DNA of 64,000 nucleotides, from the NCBI RefSeq assembly GCF_030384885.1, contig NZ_CP128613.1, one strand, 5' to 3'. Position 1 is the first letter of the stretch. Each line of letters begins with the position of its first letter. The notes beneath the pieces are model-generated. The model did not search any database and was not told the origin of the DNA. It saw nothing but the letters and a program-made list of their open reading frames with translations. The DNA comes from Escherichia coli (lineage in GTDB: Bacteria; Pseudomonadota; Gammaproteobacteria; Enterobacterales; Enterobacteriaceae). The translations under genes were made by a program, and so were the position numbers. Below are positions 10,734 through 30,314 of this stretch, in pieces.

Positions 10734-11878
10734 AAATCACCAACATTACTACGTATCGTTTACCTCCCCGCTGGATGTTCCTGAAAATTGAAACTGATGA
10801 AGGCGTGGTCGGTTGGGGCGAGCCCGTGATCGAAGGCCGCGCCCGCACGGTGGAAGCGGCAGTTCACGAGCTGGGTGACTATTTGATTGGTCAGGATCCA
10901 TCGCGCATCAATGACTTATGGCAAGTGATGTATCGCGCCGGATTTTATCGTGGCGGTCCGATTCTGATGAGCGCCATCGCCGGGATCGACCAGGCGTTAT
11001 GGGATATCAAAGGTAAAGTGCTGAATGCGCCGGTCTGGCAACTGATGGGTGGCCTGGTTCGCGACAAAATTAAAGCCTACAGTTGGGTCGGCGGCGATCG
11101 TCCGGCGGATGTTATCGACGGCATTAAAACGCTACGCGAAATCGGCTTCGATACCTTCAAACTGAACGGTTGTGAAGAGCTGGGATTGATTGATAACTCC
11201 CGCGCGGTAGATGCGGCGGTCAACACCGTGGCACAAATTCGTGAAGCTTTTGGCAATCAGATTGAGTTTGGTCTTGATTTCCACGGTCGCGTCAGCGCGC
11301 CGATGGCGAAAGTGCTGATTAAAGAACTGGAACCGTATCGCCCTCTGTTTATTGAAGAACCGGTGCTGGCGGAACAAGCCGAATACTACCCGAAACTGGC
11401 GGCACAAACGCATATTCCACTGGCGGCGGGTGAGCGCATGTTCTCACGCTTCGATTTTAAACGCGTGCTGGAAGCTGGCGGTATTTCGATTCTGCAACCG
11501 GATCTCTCCCACGCAGGCGGTATTACCGAATGCTACAAAATTGCCGGAATGGCGGAAGCCTATGACGTGACCCTTGCGCCGCACTGTCCGCTCGGCCCGA
11601 TTGCACTGGCGGCTTGCCTGCATATCGACTTTGTTTCCTATAACGCGGTACTTCAGGAACAAAGTATGGGCATTCATTACAACAAAGGCGCGGAGTTACT
11701 CGACTTTGTGAAAAATAAAGAAGACTTCAGCATGGTCGGCGGCTTCTTTAAACCATTAACGAAACCGGGCTTAGGCGTGGAAATCGACGAAACCAAAGTC
11801 ATTGAGTTCAGTAAAAATGCCCCGGACTGGCGTAATCCGCTCTGGCGTCATGAAGATAACAGCGTAGCAGAGTGGTAA
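10730..11878 (+). CDS. dgoD: D-galactonate dehydratase (enolase superfamily)
   Basis: 382 aa [32 protein letters not shown]. Confidence 0.95.
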
Positions 11879-11997
11879 TTCCTGCCACGTAAGCCCCTCA
11901 TCGGGCACTAAAACAGCAATACAAAAATATAACCCTCTGTACATTACAGGGCATGGTGAGCGGCTTCGCTATGCCCAAAATCTGGAGAAAGCTCGCT

Positions 11998-13290
11998 ATG
12001 GATATTCCCGTTAATGCAGCAAAACCGGGGCGTCGGCGTTATCTGACGCTGGTGATGATCTTTATTACGGTGGTCATTTGTTATGTTGACCGCGCTAACC
12101 TGGCCGTGGCTTCCGCCCATATTCAGGAAGAGTTCGGCATTACCAAAGCGCAAATGGGCTATGTATTTTCGGCCTTCGCCTGGCTTTATACCTTATGTCA
12201 GATCCCCGGCGGTTGGTTTTTAGATCGCGTAGGTTCTCGCGTGACTTATTTTATTGCGATATTTGGCTGGTCAGTGGCGACGTTATTCCAGGGCTTTGCC
12301 ACGGGCTTAATGTCATTAATTGGTCTGCGTGCGATAACCGGTATTTTCGAAGCGCCCGCGTTCCCGACCAATAACCGGATGGTGACCAGCTGGTTCCCGG
12401 AACATGAACGCGCTTCTGCCGTGGGTTTTTATACGTCTGGTCAGTTTGTCGGTCTGGCGTTTCTGACTCCGCTGCTGATCTGGATTCAGGAAATGTTGAG
12501 CTGGCACTGGGTGTTCATTGTCACCGGCGGTATCGGCATTATCTGGTCGCTGATTTGGTTTAAGGTTTATCAGCCGCCGCGCCTGACCAAAGGCATTAGC
12601 AAAGCTGAACTGGATTACATTCGTGACGGCGGCGGTCTGGTGGATGGCGATGCGCCAGTGAAAAAAGAGGCGCGTCAGCCGCTAACCGCCAAAGACTGGA
12701 AACTGGTGTTCCATCGTAAACTGATCGGCGTCTATCTTGGGCAATTTGCGGTGGCTTCTACACTGTGGTTCTTCTTAACCTGGTTCCCGAACTATTTAAC
12801 CCAGGAAAAAGGAATCACAGCGCTGAAAGCGGGCTTTATGACCACGGTGCCATTCCTTGCGGCGTTTGTTGGCGTCCTGCTCTCAGGCTGGGTCGCGGAT
12901 CTGCTGGTACGTAAGGGCTTTTCACTGGGCTTTGCGCGTAAAACGCCGATTATCTGCGGTTTGCTGATCTCCACCTGCATTATGGGTGCTAACTACACCA
13001 ACGATCCGATGATGATTATGTGCCTGATGGCGCTGGCATTCTTCGGCAACGGTTTTGCTTCGATTACCTGGTCGTTAGTCTCTTCTCTGGCACCGATGCG
13101 GCTGATTGGTTTAACCGGTGGCGTGTTTAACTTCGCCGGTGGTCTGGGCGGCATCACCGTTCCGCTGGTGGTGGGGTACCTGGCGCAGGGTTACGGTTTC
13201 GCGCCTGCACTGGTTTATATCTCCGCCGTCGCGTTGATTGGCGCGCTCTCTTACATCCTGCTGGTGGGCGATGTGAAGCGCGTTGGATAA
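11998..13290 (+). CDS. dgoT: D-galactonate transporter, MFS
   Basis: 430 aa from ATG at 11998 ([22 protein letters not shown]); 12-TM-like hydrophobic profile. Confidence 0.9.
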
Positions 13291-14351
13291 TCTTTAAACT
13301 GTGGAATATGCGCCACACCACTGCGCATAATCCATTTTCTTAAAGCCGGTGCGGTCAGGCATCGGCTTTTTACTATTTTGCCGAAGAGTTTTAAACGCAG
13401 TTTGCGGGTGGCGCGCCAGTAAGCGGCGTTGCTCTTCTCCGGCTGCTTCAGTAACACCGAACGCAGAATCTCTGCACTATCCAGCGCATAGCTAATCCCC
13501 TCCAGCGAGCTGGCGCTGATAAATCCCGCCGCTTCACCAATCAGAAAGGCGTTGTCCTTACCGCAGACAAAATCCTGCCAGCGTGAGGGAAACAGCACCG
13601 TGCATTTTTCGCTTTTTACCGCCTTACCAAACTGAAACTGAAAGGCGCTCATTTTCTCTTTTAGCGCCGTGAAGCGCGCCTGGCCGTCTTTCATTGGATA
13701 GGCACCGCCAAAGATAAAATAACCGTCTTTGCTGATACTCCATGAATAACAGTCAGTTATCGCATTATCAAAGATGCAGGAGTAGAACGGCACCGGATGT
13801 TTCTCTGCGAACCACTGCTGGATAGCAACATATTTACGAATCTGATGATCCGGGTAGAGATGTCGCCGCACCATCGAGTTTGCACCATCGGCACCGACCA
13901 GATAGCGGGCGGTAATGTGTTGCTCCCAGCCGTCTGCGCGAAAAATGACATGCCATTTATCATCCTCATGCCAGATTTTCCGGCACAGGCTGTCGTGGTA
14001 AACCTCAACGCTGGTGGGAATGAGCGATTTCATCCATAAGTCGAAAGCATGGCGATTAATATTGATATAGCTTCGCTGGTAGTTACGTGTAAGCGATGCG
14101 GCGACGTCGACGGTTTTGACGCTGAAAATCTGCGGGTTGGCGATCACATCGACAGGAAGCGTCAGTCCATCGCGAATAAAAGAACGCTGCGCGTCCGGTG
14201 CCAGCAGACCGCCACAAGGCTTGCTGAAACCTTCAGTACCATGCTGGTGCTTTTTATCCAGCGCGATCACCTGCATTTTGCTGGCTAACTTTCGCGCCAA
14301 CGCCGAACCTGCCGGGCCGAGGCCAATAATCGCCACGTCGAAATGTTCCAT
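13251..14351 (-). CDS. cbrA: FAD-dependent oxidoreductase CbrA (colicin E2 tolerance)
   Basis: starts [22 protein letters not shown] (GxGxxG FAD fold); 3' end overlaps the dgoT 3' end by 40 nt on the opposite strand. Confidence 0.85.
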
Positions 14352-14415
14352 CTTTTCACTCACATTCATTACGATGGCAAAAGACTATTGTCTGAAAGTG
14401 AAGTCCTTGTGAAGT

Positions 14416-15666
14416 ATGATGGCGGGAACCGTTTTGTATCAGGACCGCGCCATGAAACAGATAACCTTTGCTCCCCGTAATCACCTGCTCACCAATACCA
14501 ACACCTGGACGCCCGACAGCCAGTGGCTGGTATTTGACGTGCGTCCTTCTGGGGCGTCGTTTACCGGTGAGACCATTGAGCGCGTGAATATTCATACCGG
14601 TGAGGTCGAGGTTATCTACCGTGCGTCACAGGGCGCACACGTCGGCGTGGTGACCGTTCATCCGAAGTCAGAGAAATATGTCTTTATTCACGGCCCTGAA
14701 AATCCTGATGAAACATGGCATTACGACTTCCATCATCGACGCGGCGTGATTGCTGAAAGCGGCAAGGTGAGCAATCTCGATGCAATGGATATTACCGCGC
14801 CGTATACGCCAGGAGCGCTGCGTGGCGGCAGCCATGTACATGTCTTTAGCCCGAACGGTGAAATGGTGAGCTTTACCTATAACGACCATGTAATGCATGA
14901 ACGCGATCCGGCGCTGGATTTGCGAAATGTCGGTGTTGCTGCACCGTTTGGCCCGGTCAACGTACAAAAGCAGCATCCGCGTGAATACAGCGGTAGCCAC
15001 TGGTGCGTACTGGTGAGTAAAACAACGCCCACGCCGCAGCCTGGCAGTAATGAAATCAATCGTGCTTATGAAGAAGGATGGGTAGGAAATCACGCGCTGG
15101 CGTTTATTGGCGACACACTTTCGCCAAAGGGCGAGAAAGTGCCGGAGCTGTTTATCGTTGAGTTACCGCAAGATGAAGCTGGCTGGAAAGCGGCAGGTGA
15201 TGCGCCGTTAAGTGGAACGGAAACAACCCTGCCCGCGCCACCGCGTGGCGTCGTGCAGCGACGTTTAACTTTTACCCATCATCGGGCTTATCCGGGATTA
15301 GTCAACGTTCCGCGCCACTGGGTGCGCTGTAATCCGCAGGGGACGCAAATCGCGTTTTTAATGCGTGATGATAACGGCATTGTGCAACTGTGGCTTATCT
15401 CACCACAGGGCGGCGAGCCGCGACAGTTAACTCATAACAAAACGGATATTCAGTCTGCATTTAACTGGCACCCTTCCGGGGAATGGCTGGGCTTTGTGCT
15501 GGATAATCGAATTGCTTGCGTCGATGCGCAAAGCGGCGAGGTTGAGTATTTAACCGAAAACCACGCCAATCCCCCTTCTGCGGACGCCGTGGTCTTCTCG
15601 CCGGATGGTCAATGGCTGGCGTGGATGGAAGGTGGCCAGCTGTGGATCACCGAAACTGATCGCTAA
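14416..15666 (+). CDS. yidR: YidR, DUF3748 family protein
   Basis: 416-aa ORF; start could be a downstream Met (MKQITFAPRN). Confidence 0.85.
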   Translation: MMAGTVLYQDRAMKQITFAPRNHLLTNTNTWTPDSQWLVFDVRPSGASFTGETIERVNIHTGEVEVIYRASQGAHVGVVTVHPKSEKYVFIHGPENPDETWHYDFHHRRGVIAESGKVSNLDAMDITAPYTPGALRGGSHVHVFSPNGEMVSFTYNDHVMHERDPALDLRNVGVAAPFGPVNVQKQHPREYSGSHWCVLVSKTTPTPQPGSNEINRAYEEGWVGNHALAFIGDTLSPKGEKVPELFIVELPQDEAGWKAAGDAPLSGTETTLPAPPRGVVQRRLTFTHHRAYPGLVNVPRHWVRCNPQGTQIAFLMRDDNGIVQLWLISPQGGEPRQLTHNKTDIQSAFNWHPSGEWLGFVLDNRIACVDAQSGEVEYLTENHANPPSADAVVFSPDGQWLAWMEGGQLWITETDR

Positions 15667-15667
15667 A

Positions 15668-16000
15668 TCAGTTATCAGGCATTCTGGCCGGTGGAATAAC
15701 CGCATTGGTGGCTTGCGCGTTGGCTTCGCTTTTTTCAACGCGTGAGCGCACCGAGCTGTCTTTGCGGAACACATCCCACGGCAGTAAAAGCGTGTCCATC
15801 ACAGCGGTAAACGGCATATCGAGAATCGCCAGCGACTTAGTGCCCCAGTTGGTTTCATCGTCGCCAATCATGGTGGCGCTGGCGCGGGTGCCGGGATACG
15901 TTCCTTCTTTTCCCCCGGTATGGGACATCACGCTGGAGCATCCTCCGAGTAATGTCATTCCGCTGCATATCATGAACGCTAACAACACATTTCTTATCAT
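15668..16000 (-). CDS. yidQ: small lipoprotein YidQ
   Basis: 110 aa from Met MIRNVLLAFMICSGMTLLGGC (lipobox); convergent with yidR. Confidence 0.8.
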   Translation of the reverse strand: MIRNVLLAFMICSGMTLLGGCSSVMSHTGGKEGTYPGTRASATMIGDDETNWGTKSLAILDMPFTAVMDTLLLPWDVFRKDSSVRSRVEKSEANAQATNAVIPPARMPDN

Positions 16001-16174
16001 AATAAATTCATCTGTTGATCGTGGGTGTTGGCCTGATGAGTTATAGCGATCCCTTGCTGAAAATAACATCATCATTACGTCGCACTGTGGCGGCTATCGC
16101 ACTTTAACGTTTCGTGCTGCCCCCTCAGTCTATGCAATAGACCATAAACTGCAAAAAAAAGTCCGCTAAAAAGA

Positions 16175-16204
16175 CTTGAAAAGTGCATTTCCAGACCCAT
16201 TTTT
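16175..16204 (+). promoter_or_regulatory. sigma32 heat-shock promoter of ibpA
   Basis: CTTGAAA at 16175-16181 and CCCATTTT at 16196-16204, 14-nt spacer, about 100 nt upstream of ibpA. Confidence 0.55.
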
Positions 16205-16305
16205 ACATCGTAGCCGATGAGGACGCGCCTGATGGGTGTTCTGGCTACCTGACCTGTCCATTGTGGAAGGTCTTACATTCTCGCTGATTTCAGGAGCTAT
16301 TGATT

Positions 16306-16719
16306 ATGCGTAACTTTGATTTATCCCCGCTTTACCGTTCTGCTATTGGATTTGACCGTTTGTTTAACCACTTAGAAAACAACCAGAGCCAGAGTAATGG
16401 CGGCTACCCTCCGTATAACGTTGAACTGGTAGACGAAAACCATTACCGCATTGCTATCGCTGTGGCTGGTTTTGCTGAGAGCGAACTGGAGATTACCGCC
16501 CAGGATAATCTGTTGGTGGTGAAAGGTGCTCATGCCGACGAACAAAAAGAGCGCACCTATCTGTACCAGGGCATCGCTGAACGCAACTTTGAACGTAAAT
16601 TCCAGTTAGCTGAGAACATTCATGTTCGTGGTGCTAACCTGGTGAATGGTCTGCTGTATATCGATCTCGAACGCGTGATTCCGGAAGCGAAAAAACCGCG
16701 CCGTATCGAAATCAACTAA
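16306..16719 (+). CDS. ibpA: small heat shock protein IbpA (alpha-crystallin family)
   Basis: 137 aa [29 protein letters not shown]. Confidence 0.97.
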
Positions 16720-16830
16720 TTCCCTAAGGCCGCCTGGCGCGGCCTGACATCTCCATGCTCGCCGTCAGGGAGCATATGCGAATCTTCGGATTTGCAGGTA
16801 CTTACTCGCTTCTTAGAAGGAGAAATGACT

Positions 16831-17259
16831 ATGCGTAACTTCGATTTATCCCCACTGATGCGTCAATGGATCGGTTTTGACAAACTGGCCAACGCACTGC
16901 AAAACGCCGGTGAAAGCCAGAGCTTCCCGCCGTACAACATTGAAAAAAGCGACGATAACCACTACCGCATTACCCTTGCGCTGGCAGGTTTTCGTCAGGA
17001 AGATTTAGAGATTCAACTGGAAGGTACGCGCCTGAGCGTAAAAGGCACGCCGGAGCAGCCAAAAGAAGAGAAGAAATGGCTGCATCAAGGGCTTATGAAT
17101 CAGCCGTTTAGCCTGAGTTTTACGCTGGCTGAAAATATGGAAGTCTCTGGCGCAACCTTCGTAAACGGTTTACTGCATATTGATTTAATTCGTAATGAGC
17201 CTGAACCCATCGCAGCGCAGCGTATCGCTATCAGCGAACGTCCCGCGTTAAATAGCTAA
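16831..17259 (+). CDS. ibpB: small heat shock protein IbpB
   Basis: 142 aa [24 protein letters not shown]; paralog of ibpA immediately downstream. Confidence 0.97.
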
Positions 17260-17274
17260 CTAGCTATTCTCTTT

Positions 17275-17302
17275 GCCCCACCATTCTGGTGGGGCTTTTT
17301 TT
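17275..17302 (+). terminator. rho-independent terminator after ibpB
   Basis: hairpin gccccaccattctggtggggc followed by ttttttt. Confidence 0.65.
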
Positions 17303-17454
17303 GTCTTTCTTCTTCAACAATGCGTTAATTTTCGCCTGTTTAAGATATTTCGGCACGTTCTTTCCCGTGATAATGTGCGCTATAAGGCAAATCTGCTTCA
17401 CCGATTCAGCCATAATCCGTAGCAATTAAAATGTTATCTCAAGAGAAATGGACG

Positions 17455-19116
17455 ATGAGTGATATAGCATTAACGGTCAGTATTCTGGCTTTGGTGGCAG
17501 TCGTCGGTTTGTTTATCGGCAACGTCAAATTTCGCGGCATAGGATTAGGTATTGGCGGCGTGCTGTTTGGTGGGATCATCGTCGGCCATTTTGTTTCTCA
17601 GGCGGGGATGACATTAAGTAGCGATATGCTGCATGTTATTCAGGAATTTGGCCTGATCCTGTTCGTTTATACCATCGGTATTCAGGTGGGGCCGGGCTTC
17701 TTTGCCTCATTGCGCGTCTCCGGATTACGCCTCAACCTGTTTGCTGTTCTGATCGTCATCATCGGTGGTCTGGTTACCGCCATCCTGCATAAACTGTTTG
17801 ATATTCCACTGCCGGTAGTACTGGGGATTTTCTCCGGTGCGGTAACCAATACGCCAGCACTGGGGGCAGGGCAGCAGATCTTGCGCGACCTGGGTACACC
17901 AATGGAAATGGTCGATCAGATGGGGATGAGTTACGCGATGGCGTATCCATTCGGCATTTGCGGGATTTTGTTCACCATGTGGATGTTGCGGGTTATTTTC
18001 CGCGTCAATGTCGAGACAGAAGCCCAGCAGCACGAGTCTTCACGCACCAATGGCGGCGCGCTGATCAGGACTATCAATATTCGCGTTGAGAACCCTAACC
18101 TGCATGATTTAGCCATTAAAGATGTACCGATTCTCAACGGGGACAAAATTATCTGTTCGCGTCTGAAACGAGAAGAAACCCTAAAAGTACCTTCGCCAGA
18201 TACTATTATCCAACTGGGCGATTTGCTGCATCTGGTGGGGCAGCCAGCGGATTTACATAATGCGCAACTGGTGATTGGTCAGGAGGTCGATACCTCGCTG
18301 TCTACGAAAGGCACTGATTTGCGCGTCGAGCGTGTGGTGGTCACCAATGAAAACGTGCTCGGAAAACGTATTCGCGACCTGCACTTTAAAGAACGCTATG
18401 ACGTTGTTATCTCGCGCCTGAACCGTGCCGGGGTCGAACTGGTCGCCAGTGGCGATATCAGCCTGCAGTTCGGCGATATTCTCAACCTGGTGGGGCGTCC
18501 GTCCGCAATTGATGCCGTTGCTAATGTGCTGGGGAATGCGCAGCAGAAACTGCAACAGGTTCAGATGCTGCCGGTGTTTATTGGTATCGGGCTTGGCGTA
18601 TTGTTAGGTTCTATTCCCGTCTTTGTGCCGGGATTCCCGGCGGCGTTGAAACTGGGACTGGCGGGCGGTCCGCTGATTATGGCGTTGATCCTCGGGCGTA
18701 TCGGCAGTATCGGTAAGCTGTACTGGTTTATGCCGCCAAGCGCCAACCTCGCGCTGCGGGAGCTGGGGATCGTACTGTTCCTCTCGGTAGTGGGGCTGAA
18801 ATCTGGTGGGGATTTTGTCAATACCCTGGTCAATGGCGAAGGGCTAAGCTGGATTGGATATGGTGCCCTGATCACCGCCGTTCCGCTGATTACTGTTGGT
18901 ATTCTGGCGCGGATGTTAGCCAAAATGAATTACCTGACCATGTGCGGAATGCTGGCTGGCTCCATGACCGATCCTCCGGCGCTGGCATTTGCTAATAATC
19001 TTCATCCAACCAGCGGTGCGGCGGCACTCTCTTATGCCACTGTCTATCCGTTGGTGATGTTCCTGCGCATTATCACCCCACAATTACTGGCGGTGCTCTT
19101 TTGGAGTATCGGTTAA
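17455..19116 (+). CDS. yidE: putative transporter YidE (AAE family, two TrkA-C domains)
   Basis: 553 aa from [22 protein letters not shown]; duplicated membrane domains with central soluble region. Confidence 0.9.
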
Positions 19117-19829
19117 CTCTTTTCCGGGTGGAGTCGCCGTAAATGGTACTCCACCTGGTATTCACTGGCATTTCTGAACATCACTGAATAATTCAAAAAC
19201 TCACCGCTCTCACTATATGACAACGAGGTGATCCGCAGCAGTGGTGTGTGTTCCGCTACCTTCATTTGCCGCGCCAGCAGTCTATCGGCGAGCACCGGCG
19301 TCAGGCTTTCATAATTACCGCCAATAAGAATCCCGCACTCTTGTTCAATATATTCAAACTTCGACCCTTCCAGATGTTGCAGCGAAAGGTTGCGGAACAG
19401 TTTTACCGGCATATAGCTATCTTCCAGCATCAGCGGTTTCCCTTCCACAAAACGAACGCGACGGGAGAAGTAGATCTGCTCGTTGATTTGAATCCGTAAT
19501 TGGCTGGCAATGGCCGGAGGCGCAGGCATGATTTCAAATATTAGCACCTGGCTGGTGACCGTTTTCCCCTGGCGTTTTAACACCTCCACCAGCCCGGTCA
19601 GGCTGGCAGTTTGATGCAGTACATCTTTGCGCACCAGATAAGTACCGCTGCCGTGGCGGCGGACCACCAACCCCCACGCCACCAGCAGGTCAATGGCTTT
19701 ACGGATGGTCATCCGTGATACCGCAAATTCTTCCGCCAGCTTTTTTTCACCGGGAAGAAGACTGTTTAGCGTGAAATCCGCGGAGTTAAGTCGAATTCTT
19801 AACCGCTCCGCAATGCTTTTGTAGATCAT
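19113..19829 (-). CDS. yidP: GntR-family transcriptional regulator YidP (HTH + UTRA)
   Basis: 238 aa from [14 protein letters not shown] motif [22 protein letters not shown]; stop overlaps yidE stop by 4 nt. Confidence 0.85.
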
Positions 19830-20124
19830 CTCTAGATCTCTTTTTTGCCTGCAAGCCCGGGTAAAGCGCCCACAAATTTCGATTAATCCGTTGAAAAAGC
19901 ATCTTTTTTTTAGTGATGTGTTCGATGCTGTGTACCCGTGTTCACAGATGTCTACTTTTTCGCGAAAACGTAGATCTCTACCGCTCAACGAAAAGCATGA
20001 AAGCGATCACGAATCCCACTGGGTCGTCATGTTCTGCCGATAGCATCTTCCTATCCTCGCTCCAGGCCTGCCGCATAACCAATCAGGCTTCCTACTTACA
20101 GAATTGAGAAAAGAGGATGTGGAA

Positions 20125-23953
<3,829 letters not shown>

Positions 23954-24119
23954 TTTAATATCCCTCCGGCGAATTATGCTCACAACCTGAACTTAACAGA
24001 AAACAATCCGTTCAGGGATACGACGTTTGTATTTTAAGAATCTGACTGCCTGACCCGACGCATTTTACCTCTCCCTATATTCATGCGTCCGGGACATAAA
24101 CATAAATAAGGGCTATGAG

Positions 24120-25835
24120 ATGAATTCGTTACAAATCTTGAGTTTTGTCGGTTTTACGCTGCTGGTGGCGGTCATCACCTGGTGGAAGGTCCGCAAAACA
24201 GATACCGGATCGCAACAAGGCTATTTTCTTGCCGGACGTTCACTAAAAGCGCCGGTTATTGCCGCTTCGTTAATGTTAACCAACCTTTCCACGGAACAAC
24301 TGGTTGGACTTTCCGGGCAGGCCTACAAAAGCGGCATGTCGGTGATGGGCTGGGAAGTCACTTCTGCGGTGACGCTGATCTTCCTCGCGCTAATCTTTTT
24401 ACCGCGCTATCTGAAGCGTGGCATTGCCACCATCCCCGATTTCCTGGAGGAACGTTATGATAAAACGACGCGTATTATCATCGACTTCTGCTTCCTCATT
24501 GCCACCGGTGTCTGCTTTCTGCCGATTGTTCTCTACTCCGGCGCGTTGGCGTTAAACAGCCTGTTTCACGTCGGGGAATCGTTACAAATTTCCCACGGCG
24601 CAGCGATCTGGCTACTGGTTATTTTGCTTGGCCTGGCGGGAATTTTGTATGCGGTGATCGGCGGACTGCGCGCAATGGCAGTGGCGGACTCCATCAACGG
24701 TATTGGGCTGGTTATTGGCGGGTTGATGGTGCCGATATTTGGCCTGATCGCGATGGGCAAGGGCAGCTTTATGCAGGGCATTGAGCAACTCACCACCGTT
24801 CACGCCGAGAAGTTAAACTCAGTCGGCGGCCCGACCGATCCCTTGCCGATTGGCGCGGCATTTACCGGTTTGATTCTGGTGAACACCTTTTACTGGTGTA
24901 CAAATCAGGGCATCGTGCAACGCACGCTGGCGTCAAAAAGTTTGGCGGAAGGGCAAAAAGGGGCGCTGTTAACGGCGGTGCTGAAAATGCTCGACCCGCT
25001 GGTATTGGTGCTGCCAGGGTTGATAGCGTTTCATCTGTATCAGGATTTACCGAAAGCTGATATGGCTTATCCGACGCTGGTCAATAACGTTCTGCCAGTG
25101 CCACTGGTAGGTTTTTTCGGCGCGGTGTTATTTGGTGCGGTGATCAGTACTTTCAACGGCTTTCTGAATAGCGCCAGTACGTTATTCAGTATGGGCATTT
25201 ACCGACGCATCATTAACCAAAATGCCGAGCCGCAGCAACTGGTTACCGTCGGGCGCAAATTTGGTTTCTTTATCGCCATTGTTTCGGTGCTGGTCGCGCC
25301 GTGGATCGCCAACGCGCCGCAGGGGCTGTATAGCTGGATGAAACAGCTCAACGGTATTTACAACGTGCCGCTGGTTACCATCATCATTATGGGCTTTTTC
25401 TTCCCCCGCATTCCGGCACTGGCGGCAAAAGTGGCGATGGGGATTGGCATTATCAGCTACATTACCATCAACTATCTGGTGAAGTTCGACTTCCATTTCC
25501 TCTATGTGCTGGCCTGTACGTTCTGCATCAACGTGGTAGTGATGCTGGTGATTGGTTTTATCAAACCACGCGCCACGCCGTTCACTTTCAAAGATGCGTT
25601 TGCGGTGGACATGAAGCCGTGGAAAAACGTCAAGATCGCGTCAATTGGCATCTTGTTCGCGATGATTGGCGTCTATGCCGGGCTGGCTGAATTCGGCGGC
25701 TACGGTACGCGCTGGTTGGCGATACTCAGTTATTTCATCGCTGCCGTAGTGATTGTCTACCTGATTTTTGACAGCTGGCGGCATCGTCACGACCCAGCCG
25801 TAACCTTTACTCCCGACGCGAAGGATAGCCTATGA
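24120..25835 (+). CDS. yidK: sodium:solute symporter family transporter YidK
   Basis: 571-aa polytopic membrane protein. Confidence 0.9.
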   Translation: MNSLQILSFVGFTLLVAVITWWKVRKTDTGSQQGYFLAGRSLKAPVIAASLMLTNLSTEQLVGLSGQAYKSGMSVMGWEVTSAVTLIFLALIFLPRYLKRGIATIPDFLEERYDKTTRIIIDFCFLIATGVCFLPIVLYSGALALNSLFHVGESLQISHGAAIWLLVILLGLAGILYAVIGGLRAMAVADSINGIGLVIGGLMVPIFGLIAMGKGSFMQGIEQLTTVHAEKLNSVGGPTDPLPIGAAFTGLILVNTFYWCTNQGIVQRTLASKSLAEGQKGALLTAVLKMLDPLVLVLPGLIAFHLYQDLPKADMAYPTLVNNVLPVPLVGFFGAVLFGAVISTFNGFLNSASTLFSMGIYRRIINQNAEPQQLVTVGRKFGFFIAIVSVLVAPWIANAPQGLYSWMKQLNGIYNVPLVTIIIMGFFFPRIPALAAKVAMGIGIISYITINYLVKFDFHFLYVLACTFCINVVVMLVIGFIKPRATPFTFKDAFAVDMKPWKNVKIASIGILFAMIGVYAGLAEFGGYGTRWLAILSYFIAAVVIVYLIFDSWRHRHDPAVTFTPDAKDSL

Positions 25836-28628: not shown

Positions 28629-29122
28629 CAGGAAGTCAGGTCATTGATGCTGAAGAGGACAGGCATAAACTGGTTGTAGAGTATAAGGATGCTCTGCAAC
28701 CTGCCGATTTTTATTACAATTTCAAACAGCGGGGCATCCGCTCCGTACAGCTTATTCCCCATCTTGAATTTGATGACCGGGGCGATCTGACGGCCGCTTC
28801 GGTGACAGCAGAGCTGTGGGGGAAATTTTTAATTGCCCTGTTCGAGTGTTGGGTACGGGCAGATATCAGTCGTATCTCGATTGAGCTTTTTGACGCCACC
28901 CTACAAAAATGGTGTGGCAGCGAAAACCCGCAACCGGGCCGTGGCTGCCAGGCGTGCGACTGGCATCGGCTGTGCCCGCACGCTCGGGAGGAGACGCCAG
29001 ACAACGTGCTTTGTGCGGGCTATCAGGCGTTTTATTCTTACTCCGCGCCGCATATGCGGGTGATGCGTGATCTGATAAAGCAGCATCGTTCTCCCATGGA
29101 GCTGATGACGATGCTGCGGTGA
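28625..29122 (+). CDS. yidF: YidF, putative sulfatase-maturase-related protein
   Basis: 165 aa; Cys-rich C-terminal region (CGSENPQPGRGCQACDWHRLCPH); overlaps yidG end. Confidence 0.8.
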   Translation: MTGSQVIDAEEDRHKLVVEYKDALQPADFYYNFKQRGIRSVQLIPHLEFDDRGDLTAASVTAELWGKFLIALFECWVRADISRISIELFDATLQKWCGSENPQPGRGCQACDWHRLCPHAREETPDNVLCAGYQAFYSYSAPHMRVMRDLIKQHRSPMELMTMLR

Positions 29123-29129
29123 CGTGAGC

Positions 29130-30314
29130 TTAAACGGGCTGCCCCTGATGCGACATCCGCGTCGCCAGCGGTAGCCAGCACAGCACGATCAACAATCCCA
29201 TTAAGGTCATCAACAACCCCAGGCTGCCCTGACCGGTTTGCGGCAACATCGCAGAGAGCGACGCAAGCACGCCGGAACCAATGTTTTGCAGACCGCCGAC
29301 CAGCGCGCCAGCCGTGCCCGCCAGGAAGGGGAACGGTTCCATTGCGCCGCTGGTCGCCAGCGGAAACAGCATCCCGGCACCGAAAAAGAACAGCGCGGCG
29401 GGAACGAGCAGCGTCCAGACATTCATCACGCCAAACCAGTCGGGGATCCACATCAGCAAGCCAGCCAGCAGGCAGCAGATAACCGACTGCCACATCAACG
29501 TCGGGAATCGTTTATTAGGACGCCCGGCAAACCATGCTCCAAAAAATGCCGCCGGAATTGGCAGAATAAACAAAATACTGACCGTCATACTGCTCAGCCC
29601 TAATACCGCACCCATCAGCACGCCGGAGCAGGCTTCAAAGGCGGCAATCCCGGCCAGACCGCCAATCAGCATCAGCAAATAACAGTTAAAACCGCTGTTA
29701 CCGAAAAGCGTTTTATAACTGGTAAGCAGGCGCGTGTGTGGTGCATCTACCGGACGCGTTTCCGGCATCCAGCGCGCCATACTGAAGGTCACACCGGCAC
29801 AAAGTACCAACAGGAAGAGATAACAGGCGCGCCAGTTCCACATCGTATCCAGCAGACCGCCGATTAACGGTGCGAGCAACGGACTGACAAGAATTCCCAT
29901 GTTTAACAGGCTGTTAGCGTGACGCAACTGTGTCCGTTCATATAAATCACGCGGCAATGTACGCGCCATCACGCCGCCTACGCCGGTGCCCATCCCCTGC
30001 ATCGCGCTGGCGGCAATCAACACCGTCAAACTGGAGGTCGTGACCGCGACCAGCGTTGCCAGCATAAAAATGGACATTCCGACGAGGATCACCGGTCGGC
30101 GACCCACACGGTCGGATATCGGGCCATAAAACAGTTGCGAGACACCGTAAGTCAGCAGATAAGCGCCCATTACGCTTTGCACCGCCCCTTCACGAACGTT
30201 GAGATCGCGCGCCATATCGGCAATAGCTGGAATATAAATGGTTTGCGCCATCTGACCGACGGCCACGAGTAATACCAACATCAATAACAAATTGACGTTT
30301 CTATGCCTTTTCAT
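29130..30314 (-). CDS. emrD: multidrug efflux MFS transporter EmrD
   Basis: 394 aa from MKRHRNVNLLLMLVLLVAVGQMAQTIYIPAIADMARDL. Confidence 0.95.
   Translation of the reverse strand: MKRHRNVNLLLMLVLLVAVGQMAQTIYIPAIADMARDLNVREGAVQSVMGAYLLTYGVSQLFYGPISDRVGRRPVILVGMSIFMLATLVAVTTSSLTVLIAASAMQGMGTGVGGVMARTLPRDLYERTQLRHANSLLNMGILVSPLLAPLIGGLLDTMWNWRACYLFLLVLCAGVTFSMARWMPETRPVDAPHTRLLTSYKTLFGNSGFNCYLLMLIGGLAGIAAFEACSGVLMGAVLGLSSMTVSILFILPIPAAFFGAWFAGRPNKRFPTLMWQSVICCLLAGLLMWIPDWFGVMNVWTLLVPAALFFFGAGMLFPLATSGAMEPFPFLAGTAGALVGGLQNIGSGVLASLSAMLPQTGQGSLGLLMTLMGLLIVLCWLPLATRMSHQGQPV

Follow-up and report, generated by a model that had tools for sequence, protein, structure and literature searches.

Convergent gene junctions without intergenic spacers around yidE in Escherichia coli and hairpins within the partners' 3' coding ends

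Tail-to-tail genes with no gap, or with overlapping ends, are commonplace in bacterial genomes and have been catalogued before, and the case of a terminator embedded in the partner gene was described for E. coli in 2007 (PMC2174442). In that survey, Lillo & Krakauer 2007 count 58 convergent overlaps genome-wide in E. coli, and the tetramer [CT]TA[AG] marks the preferred 4-nt class. The terminators of such pairs necessarily lie within the partner's coding sequence, and about 20% of the convergently overlapping E. coli genes have a rho-independent one (PMC2174442). The locus analysed here shares the 4-nt class through TTAA at yidE/yidP and at glv/yidL, and dgoT/cbrA joins it in K-12, whose allele reads CTAA. 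It departs from this class at yidR/yidQ, where the coding sequences abut across a 1-nt gap without overlapping, and at cbrA/dgoT in the present strain, where the 40-nt overlap belongs to a longer class.

Convergent excludons form a second described group, in which convergent neighbours have overlapping 3' transcripts. In MG1655, ExcludonFinder names 165 of them, yidQ-yidR and cbrA-dgoT included, and the terminators overlap in 146 of the 165 (PMC12288877). The yidE-yidP and glvG-yidL pairs, in contrast, are absent from the MG1655 list, and the mutually exclusive expression that gives the class its name is only putative for all pairs.

A third comparison concerns the suppression of antisense and read-through RNA by Rho, with subsequent trimming of the RNA to stem-loops (Adams 2021, PMC7815308; Dar & Sorek 2018, PMC6061677). 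The locus resembles this system in its bicyclomycin-sensitive regions, which lie antisense in yidP and yidR, downstream of the partner's stop. It differs in that no 3' ends are reported at the junction hairpins, where trimming back is presumed here. Overlapping bidirectional terminators (Ju 2019; Wang 2022 bioRxiv 10.1101/2022.10.23.513370) likewise place a stem-loop, unlike a canonical intrinsic terminator, where convergent units meet. Those elements are intergenic and Rho-independent, whereas here the hairpins sit within coding sequence and the read-through is Rho-sensitive. This Rho sensitivity argues against membership of the bidirectional class in the yidE and yidQ directions.

Junction geometry and overlap length

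The window is the whole 64,000-nt stretch of E. coli DNA (contig NZ_CP128613.1). The gene names agree with the RefSeq annotation of NZ_CP027579.1, whose sequence and the window are 100% identical. The genes and the shared stop tetramer are as follows.

11953-13290, + strand: dgoT CDS, galactonate transporter (RefSeq annotation)
13251-14351, - strand: cbrA CDS, long allele, 366 aa; shares 13251-13290 (40 nt) with dgoT
14452-15666, + strand: yidR CDS (RefSeq annotation); TAA stop at 15664-15666
15668-16000, - strand: yidQ CDS, lipoprotein; stop TCA (= TGA) at 15668-15670, with a single spacer base at 15667
17455-19116, + strand: yidE CDS, putative transporter (RefSeq annotation); 3' end ...GGT TAA
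19113-19116, both strands: TTAA tetramer common to the yidE stop (TAA, +, 19114-19116) and the yidP stop (TAA, -, 19113-19115)
19113-19829, - strand: yidP CDS, GntR-family regulator (RefSeq annotation); its end is the reverse complement of TTA
21741-23063, + strand: 6-phospho-alpha-glucosidase CDS, glvA/glvG-type, intact in this strain (RefSeq annotation)
23060-23953, - strand: yidL CDS, AraC-type regulator; TTAA at 23060-23063 in common with the glucosidase gene

The initial annotation had described yidE and yidP as overlapping by 4 nt at their stops, dgoT and cbrA as overlapping by 40 nt, and the yidR and yidQ stops as lying 1 nt apart, and all three geometries are borne out by the coordinates above. 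The glv 6-phospho-alpha-glucosidase/yidL pair adds a fourth convergent junction of this kind, an overlap that it had not listed. Both open reading frames of each pair are real genes with conserved C-termini, as tblastn alignments run to the protein end at as many as 77 Enterobacteriaceae loci. The abutment of yidR and yidQ is kept between -11 and +5 nt in 77/77 Enterobacteriaceae loci, although the stop codons themselves vary.

Eleven convergent junctions occur in the window, with gaps of 43, -40, +1, -4, -4, +46, +7, +123, +46, +115 and +51 nt. Roughly 600-650 convergent pairs exist genome-wide in E. coli, a figure estimated and not computed. Against a background of 58 overlaps in that estimated number of pairs, 3 overlaps among 11 junctions give a binomial P of ~0.08. 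The overlaps form a mild local cluster that is not significant after post-hoc selection.

The length of the cbrA/dgoT overlap is set by one polymorphic base.

13287: A in this strain gives a 40-nt overlap; C in K-12 gives a 4-nt overlap

With C, as in K-12 (GGC TAA), cbrA ends at a TAG stop and overlaps dgoT by the 4-nt CTAA. With A, as in this strain (GGA TAA), that stop is lost and cbrA gains 12 codons, a change that is synonymous in dgoT (Gly). Among 5,426 genomes, 1,301 carry A (the 40-nt form) and 3,397 carry C (the K-12 4-nt form), the K-12 allele being counted with a 30-mer query. The 40-nt state also occurs in E. albertii, E. whittamii, Escherichia sp. and three Citrobacter loci. Because these outgroups carry it, the K-12 TAG is the derived allele, and a strain-specific stop loss relative to K-12 is ruled out as the origin of the 40-nt overlap.

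At yidE/yidP the coding ends overlap by 33 nt at 22 loci, by 44 nt at 5 and by 4 nt at 5. The gene yidP is missing from 21% of E. coli genomes, and 1,136 genomes are without both yidP and glv. Since the 4-nt/40-nt cbrA polymorphism is common and yidP loss is tolerated, the overlaps themselves look dispensable and appear to carry little function.

Hairpins within the partners' coding ends

Downstream of the stops, hairpins lie within the codons of the opposite-strand genes.

13301-13335, + strand: first hairpin past the dgoT stop, within cbrA codons; dG -15.4 on both strands, conserved between Escherichia and Citrobacter
13342-13379, + strand: intrinsic-terminator-like element of dgoT within cbrA; 11-bp stem, 6-nt loop, then TTTTTACTATTTT
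15553-15597, - strand: hairpin 71 nt past the yidQ stop, within yidR codons, then UUUUCGGUU; dG -24.0 (-) vs -11.1 (+)
15708-15752, + strand: hairpin 42 nt past the yidR stop, within yidQ codons; dG -22.1 (+) vs -16.0 (-)
19124-19158, + strand: stable hairpin 8 nt past the yidE stop, within the last 16 codons of yidP; 11+3 bp stem, no U-tract
23066-23100, + strand: putative terminator hairpin of the glv operon, 3 nt past the stop, within the last ~13 codons of yidL, then TATTCTTC

The initial annotation had stated that no intergenic terminators exist at these junctions. This is correct for the intergenic space only and does not hold overall, as terminator-type hairpins are embedded in the 3' coding ends of the partners. 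The dgoT element at 13342-13379 is the predicted terminator with both a stem-loop and a U-tract, its stem containing 6 G-C pairs and its tail being TTTTTACTATTTT. Its dG is -18.4 on the dgoT strand vs -13.5 on the cbrA strand, and the cbrA strand is without a U-tract. K-12, E. whittamii and E. albertii have the element too, with stem differences limited to A-U to G-U and G-U to A-U.

The glv hairpin has a dG of -20.6 on the glv strand vs -11.0 on the yidL strand. Its tail TATTCTTC holds 5 T in 8 nt, and the homologous hairpins of other genera have TTTTTT. A CCGGCA..TGCCGG hairpin follows the glvA stop by 9-14 nt in 25/43 loci; 19 of these 25 are without an abutting yidL and have a T-rich tail, and 5 have the 4-nt yidL overlap. 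By this sequence comparison, the glv hairpin is the same element that lies in intergenic DNA, as a putative terminator, in genera without an adjacent yidL.

The yidE hairpin, with a dG of -24.2 on the yidE strand vs -19.0 on the opposite yidP strand, ranks within the extreme 0.05% of the 45-nt windows and is present in most Enterobacteriaceae bearing yidP. It is followed by TATTCACTGGCA; because a U-tract is absent, it is not a canonical intrinsic terminator, and the terminator consensus scan makes no call at 19124-19158. In the 1,136 E. coli genomes without yidP and glv, the hairpin stays intact in an 89-nt spacer while the adjoining yidP remnant has diverged. Every substitution within it in E. 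whittamii and E. coli E69 is compatible with the structure. Genomes without yidP have REP elements or canonical terminators right after the yidE stop, from which we infer that yidE needs a 3' hairpin.

Across loci, 73% of cells in the yidE/yidP hairpin are paired, vs 28-47% when the partners are slid. The covariation score is 0.095 vs 0.078 for shuffles, with 3/500 shuffles reaching 0.095. Only 2/14 pairs have changed on both sides, compensatory types occur in one pair only, and the signal comes mostly from one single event in the Escherichia clade. The 3' arm hardly varies, since it codes for the YidP motif QV(D/E)Y. Covariation support for the hairpin is weak and does not amount to proof. 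In YidP, the residue combinations E/L (GAG/CTC), D/V (GAC/GTC) and D/I (GAT/ATC) preserve the complementarity of one stem pair.

The hairpins in the yidE, yidR and yidQ directions are stronger than 38/38 coding-sequence control blocks of the same locus, and the glv hairpin lies at the 5th percentile. All five hairpins are more stable on the read-in strand, a biased comparison of little weight, since they were chosen on that strand. In the cross-species comparison, hairpin enrichment downstream of cbrA or yidL is not found. An Rfam scan of 11000-25000 gives no match at the junctions, the only hit being the known ROSE_2 element at ibpA.

Read-in transcription and the action of Rho

Published K-12 coordinates were mapped onto the window, so that the transcript data refer to K-12 and not to this strain.

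14641 (K-12 3869087), - strand: peak of a Rho-dependent termination region on the yidQ strand, antisense within yidR (Adams 2021)
15185 (K-12 3868543), - strand: Term-seq 3' end of yidQ-strand RNA, antisense within yidR, 483 nt into yidR (Adams 2021)
19260 (K-12 3864468), + strand: peak of a Rho-dependent termination region on the yidE strand, antisense to yidP (Adams 2021 supplementary file 2)

With no spacer, each transcript must run on into the partner, as had been proposed from the sequence. The K-12 data support such read-in, with yidE-strand RNA present within yidP and yidQ-strand RNA within yidR. On the yidE strand, bicyclomycin-sensitive termination has its peak 144 nt into yidP with a Rho score of 3.97 (p = 2e-13), and the Rho region on the yidQ strand lies ~1,027 nt into yidR with a Rho score of 7.19 (Adams 2021, PMC7815308). 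The published yidQ-strand 3' end lies far beyond the hairpin at +71 of yidQ, which is leaky at best. In Adams 2021, one 3'-end data set, no Term-seq 3' ends are called at any junction hairpin; expression of the genes concerned is low in LB or glucose, and K-12 carries glv as a pseudogene. The initial annotation had offered 3' ends inside the coding sequences ahead of the overlap as a refutation; this is not meaningful, as such termination would precede the stop codon of the gene itself.

Within 400 nt downstream, the highest-ranking 80-nt C>G window, picked as the maximum of many, reaches the top 1% of the background or comes close to it in 6/8 directions. These C>G-rich stretches are plausibly compatible with Rho loading sites.

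Interpretation of the junctions

These are probably ordinary tail-to-tail junctions from which the intergenic spacer has been lost, with the signals for each mRNA 3' end lying within the last codons of the opposite-strand gene. Because of the junction geometry, RNA polymerase would pass each stop codon and enter the partner gene. The ribosome would depart at the stop codon, and the RNA beyond would be untranslated and antisense to the partner. Part of this read-in RNA would be ended at, or stabilised by, the embedded hairpin (13342-13379 for dgoT, 23066-23100 for glv, 19124-19158 for yidE), and the remainder would be terminated further downstream by Rho. In K-12, Rho is shown to terminate both yidE- and yidQ-direction transcripts; what the hairpins do we infer. 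The reverse complement of the hairpins, or of the end of the partner's coding sequence, would encode the largely dispensable C-terminal tails of YidL, YidP and CbrA. The extent of each open reading frame (4, 33, 40 nt and so on) would be fixed by the chance position of the in-frame stop, so that overlap lengths vary among strains and genera. Complementary RNAs, the 'convergent excludons', would arise from the overlapping 3' ends, and any regulatory effect they may have is probably small.

The significance of such junctions is small, and the general point is textbook-level: loss of the spacer between convergent genes places termination signals inside coding sequence, and Rho clears the antisense read-through. 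Terminator predictors and annotation pipelines limited to intergenic DNA would miss the embedded terminators. It is probable that the tails of YidL, YidP and CbrA arose as by-products of 3' signals belonging to the neighbouring gene, and the length polymorphism of cbrA would therefore need testing before it is taken as functional. Deletion or recoding of one partner risks the loss of the neighbour's terminator.

It is possible, if rather doubtful, that the hairpins are dual-coding elements, in which selection on RNA structure dictates the C-terminal residues of the partner, and that the yidR/yidQ abutment is kept by mutual dependence for termination or antisense control. Besides the YidP combinations, the tail of YidL, encoded across the glv terminator, would be a second example under this dual-coding reading.

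Selection of the zero-spacer arrangement for mutually exclusive expression, through RNase III cleavage of the duplex and polymerase interference (for example dgoT vs cbrA, or yidQ vs yidR), is unlikely. The MG1655 excludome includes yidQ-yidR and cbrA-dgoT, and synteny is higher for excludon pairs (PMC12288877), yet the partners have no evident functional link. The tight yidR/yidQ abutment across all 77 loci fits such selection, but deletion bias acting on unneeded spacer DNA would also yield it. A long antisense RNA over yidR is documented in K-12 (Adams 2021); the embedded hairpins and Rho, however, limit read-in and do not promote it. The overlap length is moreover polymorphic within E. coli, and yidP is dispensable in the 21% of genomes that are without it.

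Termination by collision, on the model of Ju 2019 and Wang 2022, has a still lower probability. Here the junction hairpins would pause both polymerases, and head-on and trailing collisions would release them independently of Rho and of a U-tract. The yidE/yidP and glv/yidL junctions coincide exactly with hairpins that have no good U-tract and can fold on both strands, and convergent E. coli pairs whose transcripts overlap across a stem-loop are those for which the model was put forward (Wang 2022). The collision class is defined as Rho-independent, however, whereas yidE- and yidQ-strand read-through is Rho-dependent in vivo. Both partners would also have to be well transcribed, but low expression is likely for the regulators yidP and yidL. 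Furthermore, the same glv hairpin works, as a putative terminator, in genomes without a convergent partner.

An annotation artefact, with one gene per pair mis-called and the overlaps unreal, is rejected as extremely improbable: long annotated overlaps in prokaryotes are often mispredictions (PMC2478687), and several start codons are uncertain (dgoT has 445 aa here vs 430 aa in the K-12 annotation, with a further start discrepancy at yidR), but the overlaps concern stop codons, which are set by the reading frame independently of start choice, all eight proteins have conserved orthologues aligning to the C-terminus across Enterobacteriaceae, and dgoT and cbrA are, per their product names, experimentally characterised.

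Gene ends at the convergent junctions

Gene coordinates follow the RefSeq annotation of E. coli 2013C-4282 (NZ_CP027579.1; window position = record position - 3,590,180), to which window 17000-21000 is 100% identical; this region is found in 5,417 of 5,426 complete E. coli genomes. The window is oriented in reverse to K-12, and the gene names of the initial annotation agree with RefSeq.

Gene ends at four tight convergent junctions
17455-19116, + strand: yidE, ending ...GGT TAA
19113-19829, - strand: yidP, ending in the complement of TTA
end at 13290, + strand: dgoT
end at 13251, - strand: cbrA
15664-15666, + strand: TAA stop of yidR
15668-15670, - strand: stop of yidQ
end at 23063, + strand: intact 6-phospho-alpha-glucosidase gene of the glv operon
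end at 23060, - strand: yidL, sharing TTAA 23060-23063 with the preceding gene

The yidE and yidP ends place both stops within the palindrome TTAA at 19113-19116, confirming the 4-nt overlap on opposite strands described in the initial annotation; its 40-nt dgoT/cbrA overlap (13251-13290) and the single base between the yidR and yidQ stops are likewise borne out. The fourth junction, a second convergent TTAA between the 6-phospho-alpha-glucosidase gene and yidL (genes spanning 21741-23953), was absent from that list. Annotation artefact is excluded as the source of the overlaps.

Counted across the window, there are 11 convergent junctions, whose gaps are 43, -40, +1, -4, -4, +46, +7, +123, +46, +115 and +51 nt, and the four tight junctions are consecutive. 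With roughly 600-650 convergent pairs in E. coli by our estimate, and 58 overlaps among them, the binomial probability of three overlaps in 11 junctions is ~0.08; the overlaps form a mild cluster that is not significant. The count of 58 is a published one, as are the tetramers that let two opposed stops share 4 nt: CTAA, TTAA, CTAG and TTAG (PMC2174442). A further tight junction lies at 29122-29130, where yidF (+, ends 29122) and emrD (-, ends 29130) are 7 nt apart; a Rho region antisense to emrD is reported at K-12 3854772 (Adams 2021, PMC7815308).

The dgoT/cbrA overlap differs between alleles. In K-12, the junction reads GGC TAA, giving cbrA a TAG stop and a 4-nt overlap; the window strain reads GGA TAA. 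This change at base 13287 is synonymous in dgoT and converts the cbrA TAG to TAT, adding 12 codons, so that CbrA has 366 aa with the 40-nt overlap versus 354 aa with the 4-nt overlap. Seed-exact searches of complete E. coli genomes find the A allele in 1,301 and the C allele in 3,397; base 13287 is thus a common polymorphism, and the 40-nt overlap one of its alleles. The 40-nt state also occurs in E. albertii, E. whittamii, Escherichia sp. E1V33 and three Citrobacter loci, so the long overlap is ancestral and the K-12 form derived; in C. youngae the overlap is 76 nt. The 12-residue tail, which about a quarter of genomes have and most lack, is unlikely to be important.

Hairpins within the partner genes

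The initial annotation stated that no intergenic terminators exist. There is indeed no spacer to hold any, but the statement misleads, as terminator-type hairpins sit inside the partners' coding ends. Sliding 45-nt folds around each junction reveal strong hairpins near every one, and a consensus scan adds a terminator-like site on the dgoT strand.

Hairpins near the junctions
19124-19158, + strand: yidE hairpin, dG -24.2, starting 8 nt after the stop
23066-23100, + strand: glv hairpin, dG -20.6, starting 3 nt after the stop
15708-15752, + strand: yidR hairpin, dG -22.1
15553-15597, - strand: yidQ hairpin, dG -24.0, followed by UUUUCGGUU
13342-13369, dgoT strand: terminator-like site (graded good) followed by TTACTATTTT, within cbrA, 52 nt beyond the dgoT stop

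Only 0.05% of all 45-nt windows across the 64 kb reach -24.2. Compared with 38 control blocks of 130 nt from the interiors of yidE and yidR at the same locus, the hairpins of the yidE, yidR and yidQ directions are stronger than all 38, the glv hairpin and the dgoT element rank at the 5th and 16th percentiles, respectively. Every junction hairpin folds more stably on the strand in which a stop codon precedes it, an asymmetry of little weight because the hairpins were chosen on that strand. K-12, E. whittamii and E. albertii retain the dgoT element, with A-U to G-U and G-U to A-U as its only stem changes. No Rfam family matches at the junctions; the ibpA 5' UTR has the already known ROSE_2 RNA thermometer (16240-16312, RF01832, 100 bits).

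Across 80 Enterobacteriaceae loci anchored on yidE, the yidR/yidQ abutment is kept in all 77 with both genes (gaps -11 to +5 nt; +1 in 45, 0 in 18), despite interchange of TAA, TAG and TGA on both sides (loci L003-L082), and varies far less than do the yidE, glvA and dgoT junctions of the same loci. Of the 50 loci bearing yidP, 22 have a yidE/yidP overlap of 33 nt, 5 one of 44 nt and 5 one of 4 nt; a few have spacers. The yidE hairpin is recognisable in most genera bearing yidP, and yidP-less loci (Citrobacter, Salmonella, Atlantibacter) carry a REP-type hairpin or canonical terminator directly after the yidE stop. In an alignment of 49 sequences, 73% of cells pair, versus 28-47% with partners slid. 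Covariation is weak (0.095 versus 0.078 in shuffles, reached by 3 of 500); one pair occurs as CG, UG, UA and GC, the G-C form being limited to Escherichia.

Both yidP and glv (~19170-23090) are missing from 1,136 of the 5,426 complete E. coli genomes (~21%), and from E. whittamii and Escherichia sp. E1V33. There, yidE faces yidL across 89 nt (loci L085, L006, L003 and L005), a decayed yidP remnant with the hairpin intact. The remnant hairpin is identical to the window's in strain 2017.09.02CC, has a G-U to G-C change in E69, and shows only pair-preserving, bulge and loop changes in E. whittamii; the remnant beside it carries a 10-nt deletion and many substitutions. The natural yidP deletion is more telling evidence for the hairpin than covariation.

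Of 43 loci with glvA, 25 have a CCGGCA...TGCCGG hairpin 9-14 nt beyond the glvA stop. In 19 of these glvA has no adjoining yidL, and the hairpin is followed by a TTTTTT tail in several; in 5, the overlap with yidL is 4 nt and the yidL coding sequence continues across the hairpin. The last ~12 residues of E. coli YidL are thus the reverse complement, in translation, of the adjacent operon's putative terminator hairpin. The window strain carries an intact glv operon (20125-23063), including a single 538-aa PTS IIC-IIB gene (CDS 20125-21741) and a gene for a 440-aa 6-phospho-alpha-glucosidase; the K-12 operon has glvG as a pseudogene and glvB and glvC as split genes.

Transcription past the stops

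All transcript data used are from K-12, not the window strain. They support the earlier proposal that transcripts read into the convergent partner. On the yidE strand, a Rho termination region classed antisense to yidP lies at K-12 3864468 (score 3.97, p = 2e-13), where bicyclomycin raises the 800-nt window counts from 98 to 391 upstream and from 41 to 650 downstream (Adams et al. 2021, PMC7815308); it maps to window 19260, 144 nt beyond the yidE stop. For the yidQ strand, two sheets of the curated 3'-end table give a Term-seq 3' end at K-12 3868543, equivalent to window 15185 and 483 nt within yidR; a Rho region at K-12 3869087 (score 7.19) corresponds to window 14641 (PMC7815308). Both yidQ-yidR and cbrA-dgoT are among the 165 convergent excludons (neighbours with overlapping complementary transcripts) that ExcludonFinder lists for MG1655 in at least half of 58 transcriptomes; yidE-yidP is not on that list (PMC12288877).

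These data probably reflect read-in followed by ends at embedded hairpins and by Rho, with overlap lengths set by chance stops. By geometric necessity transcription continues past each stop into the partner, as seen in three directions. Part of the RNA may then end at the embedded hairpins, or be trimmed back to and stabilised by them, although none of the 3' ends reported in Adams 2021 (LB or glucose) lies at a junction hairpin. The remaining untranslated antisense RNA would be terminated by Rho, as observed in the yidE and yidQ directions; most directions also have C>G-rich stretches, a feature that would fit such termination. Overlap length would depend on where an in-frame stop chances to fall in a dispensable tail, as the polymorphisms suggest.

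The antisense interference raised in the initial annotation, as excludon-type regulation between partners, is possible but improbable. Collision-driven bidirectional termination, which fits the U-poor junction hairpins and is at odds with the Rho sensitivity, is slightly less probable still.

The initial finding of tight convergent gene ends is correct but ordinary: for E. coli, a 2007 study already described convergent overlaps, the favoured 4-nt tetramers and rho-independent terminators lying in the partner CDS (PMC2174442), and two of the three pairs noted initially are already named excludons (PMC12288877). The additions are small: a fourth junction, how often each cbrA allele occurs and which of them is derived, and, from comparison between loci, evidence that the tails of yidL and yidP overprint their neighbours' 3' hairpins.

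Other features of the window

Between ilvN and uhpA, two annotated genes for hypothetical proteins (1,266 and 1,530 nt) occupy 33695-36703; K-12 has ilvN and uhpA next to each other, so a strain-specific insertion may account for this segment. Genes for a RelE/ParE-family toxin and an HTH antitoxin are found at 45757-46417, flanked by yicN and nepI. The 48038-64000 segment resembles an ETT2-type island: it carries iatC, a 9.7-kb gene for an inverse autotransporter adhesin, eilA, a regulator gene of the HilA family, and genes for type III secretion translocon and tip proteins (IpaD/SipD-like, YopB/SseC-like).
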